From the NCBI RefSeq assembly GCF_006345805.1, contig NC_043003.1:104966001-105030000 (forward strand): a stretch of 64,000 bases of DNA, in the 5' to 3' direction. Both the position numbers and the translations under genes were made by a program. The notes beneath the pieces are model-generated. The model was given only the letters and a program-made list of their open reading frames with translations. It had not been told where the DNA came from and made no database searches. Shown in pieces: positions 11,701 to 58,891 of this stretch. How positions within the stretch are numbered: position 1 is the stretch's first letter; each line of letters opens with the position of its first letter. Source of the DNA: Octopus sinensis. Lineage: Eukaryota.

Positions 11701-14700
11701 GCTCCATCACTATGTCAACCTGGATCCGATAGCAAGTTGGCACCAGCCACAAATTTGGTCTGTGGCCCTTAGTAGAAACAAAAGCAATAAGTCAAGTTTT
11801 AATAAGAAAGAAATTTCAGTTCAACTTACCTGTATCCTCTTTGTTGACTTTTGTTCCATATAACCAATATCTGAAACAATTAGAATTTATCAAAGATTAT
11901 TCATGTCAGATGATAAGAATTAATATTCCTTAGTTGCACCACAACACGCTGGGATATTAAAGTACAACTAAAAACTTTGTCAACATATTCTGGAGCATGA
12001 GACATTCTGGCACAGTCCTTTTAGCACCACCTAAATGGCATCACTCATTTCTCTCGGTGTTTCAGCATCTAGTTATTCATGTATGTATGTGTAAAGTCTC
12101 TCTCACTCACTCTGTATGTGTATATTTCTGTATGTGCATGTATGTGTATGTTTGCCTCCAGCACCCAAAGGCAGTGTCCACTCAGCCATGCTAAATCACT
12201 AGCGCCCAAATAGCAGTGCCAAACTGTCTCATTCCAACATATGATGATTCGGTGGCTTTCCCCATCCTTAATTGCTTCATTTTTCAGGCTGCTGTCAAAT
12301 CAGCTGGACCCTCTGTTGGATCTACAATGTTGGGTCCACTCTAAGGCAAATCAGCTTTGCAGAGCCTGTCTCTTTCCAATCTATAACCTTCCTAAGGCAA
12401 TCATTTTACATGGCACATGTGGAGTCACCAAGAAACTCGTAAGACAAGACCCTTCAACTGAGGTGTGTGGGGGGTATGTGAGGAAGGTGGCTTTATCCCA
12501 GGTGATGAGATGTGACAGTATGATAGAGGGACAGGAACAAATGTTTTGCCATAGGGAAGATACATGACTACCTCCAATACATATATAATATAATATACGA
12601 GGGTGAGTCAAAAAGTAATGCCATTTTCTTTAGGACAGGTATAATTACCAACACAGGAACATGTATCATACATCAAAATGAAGCTGGTCCTCTGTGGATC
12701 ACATCCCTACTTCTCAACATAGTCAATGTTTCTCTCAATAGCAATGTTCCACCTTCAAATGAGGGCATGAATTCCCTGCCCCGTAAAATTCTGTTGACTG
12801 TTCTTTGAGCCACTTTTTCACTACAGTTTTCACTTCCCTGTCACTGAAATAATTTAGCACCTTCAGACTATCATCTCTTCGGCCCCATGAAAGAGGAATT
12901 GAGAGGCAAATCATTCTAGTGACGAGGAAGTGAAAACTGTAGTGAAGAAGAGGCTCAAAGAACAGTCAACAGAATTTTACGGGGCAGGGATACATGCTCT
13001 CATTTGAAGGTGGAACATTGCTATTGAGAGAAACGGTGACTACGTTGAGAAGTAGGGATGTGATCCACAGAGAACCAGCTTCATTTTGATGTATGATACA
13101 TGTTCCTGCGTTGGTAATTATGCCTGTCCTAAACAAAATGGCATTACTTTTTGACTCACCCTCGTAGATGCAGGTATAGCTGTAGAACTTTGTTTCCCAA
13201 CCACATAGTTCCAAGTTCAATCCCACTGCATGGCACCTTGGGCAACTGTTTTTTTTTTTTTGGTGGGGCTGACCAAATCTTTGTGAGTGGATTTGATAAA
13301 CAGAAACTGAAAAAAGCCCGTTCTACACGTGTGTTTGTGTGTGTGTGTGCATTTATTTGACCCCCATTACACCTCTTGACAACTGGTGTTGGTTTGTTTA
13401 CATCCCTAACCCTAACTTAGCAGTTCAGCATAAGACACCAACAGAATAAATACCAGGTTTTGAAAATAAGGTGCTGGGGTCAATTTGTTTGACTAAAAAG
13501 TCTTCAAGGTGGTGCCCCAGAATGGCTAGAATCAAACAACTGAAACAAGAAGGTAAAAGAGAATGTAACAGAATCCACAAAGCCATACACTACCTTCTGC
13601 CACGACTAACTTCAACGACATCTCCAACACTCAGAGGAATTCTGGCTTCGTCACTACAAGGAATATTGTAAACCACACGGCAACCCTTGCTGAACGGAAA
13701 CCAATAACCAGAGTAGTTTTGGACAATATCCAGCAGAACAACACGTTCTTTCTTTTGAGCCTTTTGAATGAGTTGCTCCACCTGGTCAGAAGAGAAGAAC
13801 AAAATGGAGGCACAATATTAAATGGATGTCACTGGCAAAGACAACTTTCACCCTTTAACATTCAGGTTTCTCTGTCAAACGTAACACTTATTTATTTATA
13901 TTGCTTCGAATTAATCATGCAATATCTTGTAGCTTCAAAAGTTTGACGATTTGATTGTTATACATTATTTACATTTGACGGATATTTGTCCTCATCTTGT
14001 TTGTTGTTAACACAACGTTTCGGCTGATATACCCTCCAGCCTTCATCAGGTGTCTTGGGAAAATTTTGAACCTGGGTTCTCATTACTAAGGTATTTTTCG
14101 ATGTTATTATTATAATTATTATTCAGGTCATTACCTGGAATTGAACTACGCCATATGCCCATGGACATATGGCGTAGTGGTTAAGAGCGCGGGCTACTAA
14201 CCCCAGATTTCAAGCTCAATTCCAGGCAGTGACCTGAATAATAATAACATTGAAAAATACCTTAGTAATGAGAACCCAGGTTCAAAAGCTCCCCAAGACA
14301 CCTTATGAAGGCTGAAGGGTATATCAGCTGAAACGTTGTGTTAACAACAAACAAGATGAGGACAAATATCTGCCAAATGTAAATAAGGTACATAATTCTC
14401 ATCTCTTAAATATAAAACTGATGTAATTGTTATGTTTAGAATAATATTATAGGGTAGATGTGAGGGATCAGATCTGGCTATTTTAAACACAAGACATGTG
14501 GAATATTTTGGTCAGATATAGCAGGGTAAAAAAATAAAAAATTTAGGCACAGGAGTGGCTGTGTGGTAAGTAGCTTGCTTCTCCACCACATAGTTCTGGG
14601 TTCAGTCCCACTGTGTGGCACCTTGGGCAAGTGTCTTGTACTATAGCCTCGGGCCGACAAAGCCTTGTGAGTAAATTTGGTAGACAGAAACTGAAAGAAG

Positions 14701-57284: not shown

Positions 57285-58891
57285 CCTCCTTCTTTCCTGC
57301 TTTCCTGAGCGTCCAATAATACTATATTTGTTCCACGTCCTCGCGTTGTTGTGTTTTTTTGTTCTTTCTTGTTTCGATTAACTATATATATATATAATAT
57401 ATATATATATATATATATATATTATATATATATAGAGAGAGAGAGAGAGAGAGAGAGAGAGAATTGTAGATGTAGAATTAATATATTTGTATGATATAAC
57501 GATTTTGAATTTTTTATAAAAACAATACAAATAAATTATAAGTTGTAAAACTCTTAAAGAAATGGCAGATGCCAAAAACCTACATATGTTTCGATTCACG
57601 CCCTTAGGTGATACGTAATTCTAAGCATTGGTATATATATATATATAATATATATATATATATATATATAATATATATATATATAATATATATATATGTA
57701 TATATATATATATAATATATATATATATATATATATTATGTATATATGTATATATATATATGTATATATATATATATAGTTGGAATTTACAAAAAAAAAA
57801 GACGAAGACAGGTGTGTGAACAATAAACAGGTGTATTAGTTTAACGCTCAAGAAGGTGAGAAAGTCTTTTACGTTTCGAGCCTACGCTCTTCAACAGACA
57901 GGAACACGAGAAAATAAACAGAGAGAATAAAAAAGCTATAGTGGCCAGCGGTCAATCATGGTATATAAATAAATAAATAAATACCTACATTATATATATA
58001 TATATATATATATATATATATATATATATATATATATATATATATATATATATATAATGTAGGTAGCTTATTACCTAAAGGCAAATTTATAAACGTCACT
58101 AAAGTGATAACGGTACAAAGTGGTACGAGCATTGCAAGAAATAAGAGTCAAAACGACTCATTAGCCACAAAAGGCATTAACTTGATAAGTTAGTGGGACA
58201 AAGGTTCCTACTGAAGAAACAGGCATATCCCTATCACATAATTTCGAAGTCTATTGCATAGCATCTCAGTTCTCGTCAGTGGATCTTACCAACCTCAATA
58301 AAATAATACATGAGACGATATTTTCCACTGTTAAATTCTGACCATTTGCTACATTAACTGCCAAATTTTTTTATTCATATTCTTCGTCTTTGCCAGGTGT
58401 CTTAGGAGTTTAAATAATATATAGTATTTAAATTTTCTTTATATGTGAATTATTTTGGAAATTATGAATTTTTCGGAAAGTCCCAAATGGGGACCACTGA
58501 AAAAGAGCATATTTGTCCTTTTCTATTCAATTGCAATAATAAACATATTAGGTTGTTTTTGTTTTTTTATGAAACTATAGAATCAAATGCGAATGCGTAT
58601 GAAATATCAATTAATGATATCGAAGGGAGATGCAAAAAAAAAAAATGTTTTCAAAGCAGTCAATATTTTTATAGTTCAAAAATTGCGATTTATGACATAA
58701 AATGTCCTCTAGAATTAGCCAGAGCTAATAATGACAAACTTTAACTACTAAATATTGTTAAACACACCTCTGCAAATGCAATGAGCATAAGCAATTCACT
58801 TTAAATACAACGAACAATCGGCAGTGAGACTGTTTTTAGCAGATCCCCAAATGGGGCTCATGGCAGGCAATGGGTTAATAAACGTTGTGAA

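Follow-up and report, generated by a model that had tools for sequence, protein, structure and literature searches.

Hammerhead ribozyme motifs crowd a 64,000-nt stretch of the Octopus sinensis genome (2.72 Gb; RefSeq assembly GCF_006345805.1, contig NC_043003.1, positions 104,966,001 to 105,030,000), and the question that this locus raises is what kind of element brought them there. We refer to the whole stretch as the window and number its positions from its first base, with strand as + or −. An earlier note, made from the letters of the window, had counted about 15 motifs in at least six unrelated repeats and read them as non-autonomous, ribozyme-processed elements mobilised by the reverse transcriptase (RT) and GIY-YIG nuclease of Penelope-like elements (PLEs). 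We place a probability of roughly 85% on the reading that the motifs are the hammerheads of the pseudo-long terminal repeats (pLTRs) of several octopus PLE families, left in insertions with truncated 5' ends, alongside one or two families of protein-free retrozymes that share the enzyme. Most of the motifs are a documented kind of autonomous-PLE debris; the earlier note saw them correctly and named the right machinery. The main result is thus ordinary, these being Penelope remnants that annotation should label as such, and its value lies in a retrozyme family (G), a tRNA-like head in one PLE family (A), a long-short rule for paired insertion ends, and a family (D) fixed for the core substitution A6U.

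A type I hammerhead-like motif, intact or decayed, lies within about 50 nt of each of the 15 positions that had been reported, though the one at 31255 is the GAAA half only, its matching CUGAUGA half being at 31376, and a canonical core with stems is present in only seven of the 15. Three further decayed sites were found at 30795 (−), 34805 (+) and perhaps 54769 (−), the last (54700-54790) having a stem II like that of families D and D'. With a structural descriptor that requires the core, 4 bp or more in stem II, self-complementarity of stem III and 3 bp or more in stem I, there are seven perfect-core sites in the window (14049−, 26959−, 28575+, 31376−, 34675−, 53723+ and 57254+) and none in any of 60 local shuffles (maximum 0); with one core mismatch allowed, there are nine sites against a mean of 0.92 and a maximum of 3 in 25 shuffles. 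The motifs are therefore more frequent than in shuffled sequence, with a descriptor that was widened after the sites were known (the first, stricter version gave two perfect and four one-mismatch sites). Rfam covariance models detected no hammerhead family in the window at E<=1, nor in six longer loci at the gathering score, and the scan output, which was microsatellite-driven miRNA noise only, was discarded.

Because four of the motifs (family B) come from one insertion within a tandem duplication, the 15 motifs represent about 11 insertion events. The background is about 50 arms per Mb, or about three per 64 kb, so that the window is about fivefold denser, by a rough lower-bound estimate taken from the flanks of loci fetched for other families with queries that favour the window. 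First-look genome candidates numbered 757 to 3,175 per family, which are not copy numbers, and exact short patterns matched the genome 285 times for G, 2,480 for B, 6,927 for D and 2,447 for the head of A, with no match for any reversed control. The family alignments and end analyses below cover the best-scoring 20 to 30 loci per query.

Nine families can be told apart (A to H, with D' a homologous sister of D), which bears out the count of at least six but not the claim that all are unrelated: D is related to D', and the proteins of B, C and F are related to one another. Elsewhere in the genome, families A to F run upstream into broken RT/GIY-YIG open reading frames (ORFs) that are collinear with the arms, which marks them as the 3' ends of autonomous PLEs rather than separate non-autonomous elements. 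RT-region or linker pieces with GIY-YIG pieces were found for A, B, D, E and F, and the GIY-YIG end only for C; the GIY-YIG domain was recognised through the Atlas in A, and through its motif and tblastn in the other families. Of 30 loci fetched by the GIY-YIG 3' end, 29 contain a family A arm, mostly directly after the head; longer copies carry RT motifs (RVT_1, E=2.8e-10), and the GIY-YIG look-alike clusters of this family have a score of 0.97, with the family on 15-27% of members. TERT was among the weak PDB matches (E=0.01). One family B locus (L289) holds an inverted arm, a truncated RT+GIY-YIG frame, a 1.1-kb 3' untranslated region (UTR), the ribozyme and the tail, with arms 99.1% identical, and one family C locus (L302) has a GIY-YIG C-terminus that is connected to the arm by about 2.3 kb of low-complexity UTR. 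For D and E, linker and GIY-YIG frames lead into the arm in several loci, and a family F locus (L281) has the order pLTR-ORF-pLTR, in direct orientation, with a period of 4591 nt. PLE RT/GIY-YIG is accordingly a likely mobiliser, as had been proposed, while "non-autonomous" does not fit A to F and does fit G, probably H and possibly the short copies of A. We take A to be Penelope/Poseidon-like and B, D, E and F to be Neptune/Nematis-like, provisional labels based on the Cys-rich linker (PMC8557442; present in B, D, E and F, absent from A) and on sequence motifs. The 1.1-2.3 kb low-complexity 3' UTRs of B, C and F (L072, L191, L289, L302) look like microsatellites and are nonetheless conserved between copies, and the full family F element is immediately preceded by an inverted RT fragment that belongs to another PLE (L281 80-1207, −).

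Fold-backs in the window are real, but the four that had been counted are too few: they belong to A, B (twice), C, E, G and, in part, F. The family A fold-back (13961-14436) has an untailed arm at 13961-14147 (−) and a tailed arm at 14148-14436 (+) and is presumably a Penelope/Poseidon-like 3' end; its canonical hammerhead at 14009-14054 (−; C3 at 14049, H17 at 14014) has a 5-bp stem I, a 6-bp stem II after a bulged A and an ACGU palindrome as stem III, and its second hammerhead at 14297-14342 (+; H17 at 14337) is decayed, with G5 changed to U. Family B copy 1 (20361-21336) consists of a tailed arm at 20361-20834 (−) and an untailed arm at 20843-21336 (+), with U4C hammerheads at 20558 (−) and 21219 (+); copy 2 (22125-23114; hammerheads at 22322, −, and 22997, +) is a tandem duplicate of this insertion. 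The family C fold-back (26780-28689) pairs a tailed (−) and an untailed (+) arm of a long low-complexity PLE 3' UTR, with canonical hammerheads at 26959 (−) and 28575 (+) and stem III ACAUAUGU. Family F (31095-31938) comprises an arm at 31095-31675 (−), whose canonical hammerhead (C3 at 31376, H17 at 31259) has an insert of about 90 nt in loop II, and a head-to-head piece at 31694-31938 (+) from downstream of the pLTR. The family E fold-back (34474-34940) has a tailed arm at 34474-34728 (−) with a hammerhead at 34675 and an untailed arm at 34742-34940 (+) with the motif mostly deleted. Family D is present as a 5'-truncated PLE 3' end at 33339-34159 (−) with an A6U hammerhead (C3 at 33465, H17 at 33438), as a copy at 57772-57961 (−) with an A6U hammerhead at 57897, and as a decayed copy at 30683-30801 (−) with a remnant motif at 30795; D' lies at 57166-57375 (+) with a canonical hammerhead at 57254 (H17 at 57280). 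Genome-wide, upstream inverted arms were seen in 17 (A), 8 (B), 12 (C), 2 (D), 1 (D'), 12 (E) and 5 (F) of 30 loci per family.

Much of this has precedent. Animal genomes contain thousands of minimal hammerheads each, mostly in truncated PLEs and of low activity in vitro, with pairs on opposite strands 100-700 bp apart (PMC4209133), and PLEs leave an inverted 5'-truncated copy and a 30-40-bp tail, often at one end only (PMC8557442), so the inverted arm and one-sided tail of A to F are an arrangement already described. The octopus elements resemble endonuclease-positive (EN+) PLEs (PMC8557442) in their RT with C-terminal GIY-YIG, in their type I hammerhead with a bulged base before stem II and a palindromic stem III, in the opposite-strand motif pairs 100-700 bp apart in truncated copies, in the inverted 5'-truncated copy, and in the one-end tail and microsatellite targets. 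They differ in tails of 55-100 nt in B, C, E and G rather than the 30-40 bp described, in loop II inserts of up to about 90 nt, in the core changes A6U (fixed in D) and U4C (frequent in B and D'), and in the tRNA-derived head of A. Thirty-one recently active Penelope-like families are given for O. vulgaris in a paper whose main text contains neither "hammerhead" nor "ribozyme" (PMC13282606). A literature search that covered few subscription papers and neither Repbase nor Dfam, and which is no proof of novelty, found nothing on octopus PLE ribozymes, on tails in retrozyme arrays or on a tRNA-headed PLE-dependent short interspersed element (SINE).

The consensus core CUGANGA / GAAA / UH is kept in A, C, D', E, F, G and H and altered in D and B, and in all nine consensuses stems I and II are paired and stem III is self-complementary (in E with a central A-A mismatch). 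The stem III palindrome measures 4 nt in A, D and D', 8 nt in B, C and F, 10 nt in H and 12 nt in G, and reads AG-AA-CU in E; the attribution to PLE-type minimal hammerheads is supported. The stem covariation that had been proposed as a check is present as compensatory stem I changes, C-G in D for G-C in D' and G-C in B for A-U in F. Core conservation across the copies of a family is weak evidence, as it barely exceeds that of the flanks (in A, for example, 0.988 against 0.967) and falls below it in D'. Single-motif folding energies were mostly uninformative (z of 0 to −1.7, with only G reaching −5.5), monomers are predicted to fold with the core paired, and a MAFFT alignment across families was not used because it failed to align the stems.

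Position 6 of family D is U in 99 of 100 copies among the matches listed (6,927 in total) and, in 20 incidental copies, U in 19, C in one and A in none; position 7 varies freely. In family B, position 4 is C in 57 of 100 among the matches listed (2,480 in total; counted by eye), and an A faces an A at the base of stem II; copies with U at position 4 may partly reflect CpG decay. The same U4C change is found in 10 of 30 D' copies (L121-L150). In published work A6C has low activity, and U4C lowers activity in vitro yet permits viroid infectivity (PMC3088659); a search that covered part of the literature found no report of A6U in hammerheads. Since D, the commonest family, is fixed for A6U, a canonical core is unnecessary for spread. 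RNA reads over family A (three runs, about 6% of each, assigned by species label and possibly from a related species) are spread evenly over the two strands, without bias, and their coverage rises about 1.8- to 2.3-fold at the head; neither starts nor ends pile up, at the cut site or elsewhere; standard RNA-seq libraries hardly capture ribozyme ends, so the absent pile-up decides nothing on cleavage, and the reads look like read-through of genomic copies that decides nothing about cleavage or RNA polymerase III (Pol III) either. Ribozyme processing of the elements has no support in these data, given the spread of D with A6U, the U4C of about half of B and the family A reads. We infer that hammerhead cleavage would be weak, protein-assisted or dispensable for the PLE families, and that it would matter for G, where monomers and circles have to be released. 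Families that naturally carry A6U or U4C offer ready controls for the question whether cutting is required of PLE ribozymes.

The ends of the insertions follow a rule. Two 3' ends were resolved in five families, at about 53/83 (A), 68/170 (B), 42/110 (C), 115/170 (E) and 144/228-235 (G) nt after the cut, and were not resolved in D, D', F and H. Among 54 two-armed insertions of A, B, C and E, 49 combine a long with a short arm, the other five being short-short and none long-long; the same holds for 10 of 11 distinct family G pairs (counted by eye). Pooled over the five families, the 65 two-armed insertions include 59 in which one arm is tailed and the other untailed (against one half, p=5e-12), in support of the inverted pLTR arms with a one-sided tail that the earlier note had described. 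Forty-five of 47 long-short pairs could be scored for 5' reach: it is greater for the untailed arm in 23 pairs and for the tailed arm in 12, with no difference in the remaining 10. As the tail is missing from the longer arm in 23 pairs, the tailed arm was not copied from it, nor the reverse, and a simple snap-back model for the second arm was dropped for its misfit to these pairs. Head-to-head junctions join arms of the same family in 93 of 96 cases; one insertion joining two different PLE RNAs was rejected on these numbers (three mixed against 93 same-family). In each insertion, then, reverse transcription probably started twice on RNA. The far-downstream piece of family F (31694-31938, also L281 1595-1838) lies well past the usual 3' end, head-to-head with the main arm, and suggests a tail of about 250 nt.

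Family G consists of tandem 474-nt units (469-475 nt), each with a hammerhead and a longest open frame of at most 62 aa; core and stems are intact in 14 of 16 units, GC is 37%, and the predicted energy of the circle is −138.8 kcal/mol against a shuffle mean of −101.2. By its sequence, family G is a real retrozyme. Among the first 100 matches listed there are 40 dispersed loci on five contigs, with 20 head-to-head junctions against one tail-to-tail. Multi-unit arms flank the head-to-head junction on both sides (6.9 + 3.0 units in L288, 4.7 + 3.8 in L287), the arrays end at one of two fixed sites, and their 5' ends fall all round the unit. This combination is what a PLE RT would leave on circular or multimeric RNA, two templates between which sequence alone cannot tell. 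In the window, family G is a fold-back (53584-53947) of a short tailed arm at 53584-53706 (−) and an untailed half-unit at 53706-53947 (+), whose hammerhead (53723, +; H17 at 53807) has the 12-nt stem III palindrome and has lost one A relative to the family; an old ribozyme-free unit fragment of 77% identity lies at 30966-31068 (+). The start of one family G arm (L226/L227) coincides exactly with the cut site predicted for the ribozyme, an isolated case that is within chance, and the idea that G rides with family E (L284) was rejected, as a (TA)n run separates them. Family H is old (about 70-89% identity), has a head-to-tail unit of about 360 nt in one locus (L242) and is probably an older retrozyme; a search with a shorter query gave no ORF lead, and the window copy at 58073-58288 (−; hammerhead at 58279) is decayed.

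Animal retrozymes have been defined, with PLEs named as their likely mobilisers (PMC7229834, PMC7761336), and have been derived from pLTRs in a mainly vertebrate sample whose named invertebrates, in the accessible text, are insects and a coral (bioRxiv 10.64898/2026.07.22.740005). Family G resembles these metazoan non-LTR retrozymes (PMC7229834; bioRxiv 10.64898/2026.07.22.740005) in its protein-free, low-GC tandem units, with a type I hammerhead in each and high self-pairing predicted for the circle, and H is probably similar. Family G differs in its 474-nt unit, slightly above the 150-450 bp given for repeats, in its PLE-like ribozyme with the 12-nt palindromic stem III, in its PLE tails and in its head-to-head inversion. 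PLE mobilisation of retrozymes had been proposed from co-occurrence and pLTR homology, whereas young, intact G bears the PLE insertion signature itself.

Family A raises a separate matter. About 35 nt after the PLE stop codon it has a 74-nt head with an A-box, a 33-nt spacer and a B-box, which fit the Pol III consensus of PMC8969392 with one mismatch. Against host tRNA-Cys the head is identical at 48 of 74 positions (z=8.6 against shuffles), with z>=3 for all 20 tRNAs tried; tRNAs match one another better than this (mean of 70, against 57 for the head), and the head does not resolve to one isotype. Neither ARAGORN (25 loci) nor Rfam called it, and ARAGORN in relaxed mitochondrial mode gave spurious folds only. 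In 30 arm-selected loci, 21 of the 5' ends fall at −17 to +30 of the tRNA-like first base and two reach the ORF, four loci lack the head, and three have lost it to a deletion at the junction. The 2,447 matches of the head are those of a 25-mer with two degenerate positions, compared with 706 for an exact 25-mer 36 nt upstream. One diagnostic base is found in 23 of 28 short copies against 2 of 21 ORF-linked copies with a letter there, both samples being query-biased. The tRNA-derived head, together with the start of most short copies at it, suggests that these copies are a PLE-mobilised SINE, which if true would be a new class of SINE partner. In the window the head occupies 14163-14234 (+), with an intact A-box at 14170 and a decayed B-box at 14213, followed by (AAT)n. 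The 3' ends of long interspersed elements (LINEs), which we take to be R4/Dong-like, sit in the family A (AAT)n run, upstream of the arm, in three loci (L015, L026, L030) and replace the head.

Schistosoma has Pol III SINEs with hammerheads, Sm-alpha and Sj-alpha (PMC6765202), which short family A copies resemble in having a Pol III-type promoter beside a hammerhead in a short retroposed unit. In Sm-alpha cleavage leaves the promoter at the monomer 3' end and the elements stand in tandem. Family A differs in that its head belongs to the 3' UTR of an autonomous PLE, its copies are single or fold-back, and the inserted copy keeps head, ribozyme and PLE tail.

We hypothesize that the PLE protein would nick both strands of AT-rich DNA and that reverse transcription would begin twice inside RNA downstream of the ribozyme, at a near and a far site; both copies would stop early and be joined at their 5'-truncated ends, giving a fold-back in which only one of the two arms has a tail. 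For family G the template would be circular or multimeric RNA, which would allow several units per arm, and for short family A copies it would probably start at the tRNA-derived promoter. In the Poseidon element PAc of Anolis, two internal RT starts define the tail, both strands are cut and extended, a dimer is predicted, ribozyme mutants still insert in vitro, and no RNA-seq ends occur at the cut site (PMC11167929). The octopus elements are alike in their proposed pair of start sites, which likewise lie downstream of the ribozyme and set the tail, in the proposed cutting and extension of both DNA strands and, for family A, in the lack of RNA-seq ends at the cut site. They differ in that one insertion uses both sites, one per arm, which the accessible text on PAc does not report, and the PAc ORF begins inside the ribozyme, whereas the first open stretch of family F begins well downstream of it. 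The inverted copies and one-sided tails of PLEs have been unexplained so far, and the long-short rule is a direct prediction for this existing in vitro system.

Several results weigh against pLTR hammerheads of PLEs as the common source. All ORFs seen are broken, and none of the elements found is intact; the GIY-YIG pieces escaped recognition by Pfam; and the search for PLE frames sharing each 3' end, successful for A to F, found none collinear upstream of D', G and H (30, 20 and 20 loci), leaving G without a partner PLE. The family A reads lack a cut-site pile-up and a strand bias, about two of the 65 pairs may be double counts (L021/L252 and the window's two B copies), and best-scoring loci lean to young, window-like copies. 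The view that every family is a non-autonomous, self-amplifying, ribozyme-processed retrozyme is true for G and probably for H, and can point to the scarcity of ORFs, which most copies of every family lack, and to the diagnostic base shared by short A copies. As a general account it is very improbable: the collinear frames of A to F speak against it, and their ORF links refute it for B to F, whose 5' ends are scattered over hundreds of bases as in ordinary truncation (depending on the family, at most 5-15 of 30 ends fall within any 50-nt interval, and in all but B this peak sits at the minimum length compatible with the query). Direct arm repeats, moreover, occur in only 0-3 of 30 loci per family in A to F and D', which therefore lack the tandem units of retrozymes. 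Hardly credible is a reading of the fold-backs as miniature inverted-repeat transposable elements (MITEs) or hairpin artefacts with incidental ribozyme motifs. The arms are indeed long inverted repeats and many ends abut (TA)n, but a fixed rule governs the asymmetry of the ends, the length of the centre differs between insertions, and no fixed, symmetric terminal inverted repeats with DNA-transposon target-site duplications were seen; no clear duplication was found at seven window elements, where (TA)n flanks hide short ones. The excess of motifs over shuffles, the compensatory stem I changes (D/D', B/F) and the ORF links also contradict it.

Two further alternatives concern single families. 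The arrays of G might be a satellite-like local expansion by unequal crossing-over from a single PLE end, along the lines of the local amplification scenario discussed in bioRxiv 10.64898/2026.07.22.740005, and its units are more alike within loci (99.0%) than between them (97.8%). Copying from one RNA template predicts the same difference, and the dispersal of the arrays, their two fixed ends with 5' ends all round the unit, and the multi-unit arms on both sides of the junction make local expansion unlikely. For family A the balance is much closer: we give almost an even chance to the clustered 5' ends reflecting a junction-favouring palindrome or a Pol II start in the pLTR instead of Pol III. 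A short palindrome spans the head start, in ORF-linked copies too, fold-back loose ends at the head start appear in RNA reads, and PLE promoters lie in the pLTR (PMC6765202). The diagnostic base of short copies creates a T4 run before the ribozyme, seen in 23 of 27 scored arm-selected copies, which could stop Pol III and counts against the SINE reading. On the other side, about a dozen copies joined to other sequence rather than to a mirror head still begin at −17 to +15, the longer arm reaches about +1 in 15 of 15 short two-armed insertions (range −17 to +25), and the boxes and spacer fit Pol III.

Beyond pLTR hammerheads in truncated PLE insertions, we put forward a joint and tentative picture, which we regard as somewhat likelier to fail as a whole than to hold. 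Family A would be a Pol III tRNA-headed SINE born in a PLE 3' end and copied by that PLE; the G arrays would be written in one step by a PLE RT on a circular or multimeric RNA, from two starts, one per strand; and the hammerhead fold would serve PLEs mainly as a protein-bound structure, as the spread of the most abundant family (D) with A6U would suggest.

The elements lie in and around a gene. An exon at about 42420-42650 (−) encodes octopus ZDHHC6, a palmitoyltransferase (97% identity to the O. bimaculoides protein; the exon was not recognised in a Pfam search), and more exon-like pieces at 36187, 34408 and 16142 give a gene span of 16142-42650 (−). Its introns hold families B to F and three D-type copies; family A is situated beyond the last exon piece that was detected, and the region upstream of the first exon contains G, D', H and one D copy. 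The segments 19981-21343 and 21721-23121 form a tandem duplication of 96.8-98% identity that holds a SINE-like piece and the family B fold-back, and is either a recent duplication or an assembly effect. A ribozyme-free fold-back at 12578-13184, presumably a Tc1/mariner-type MITE, has symmetric ends adjoining TA, which makes it instructive to compare with the asymmetric fold-backs of PLEs. Remnants of two LINE reverse transcriptases, both broken and, judging by their motifs, probably RTE-like, lie at 2-1531 (−), interrupted by a microsatellite, and at 31975-33282 (+). Many window sites (e.g. 35083, 40562, 43577, 45917, 47852, 48734, 49760, 56797 and 59592) belong to SINE-like families, at least two in number, that are abundant and dispersed and have no relation to the ribozyme elements.

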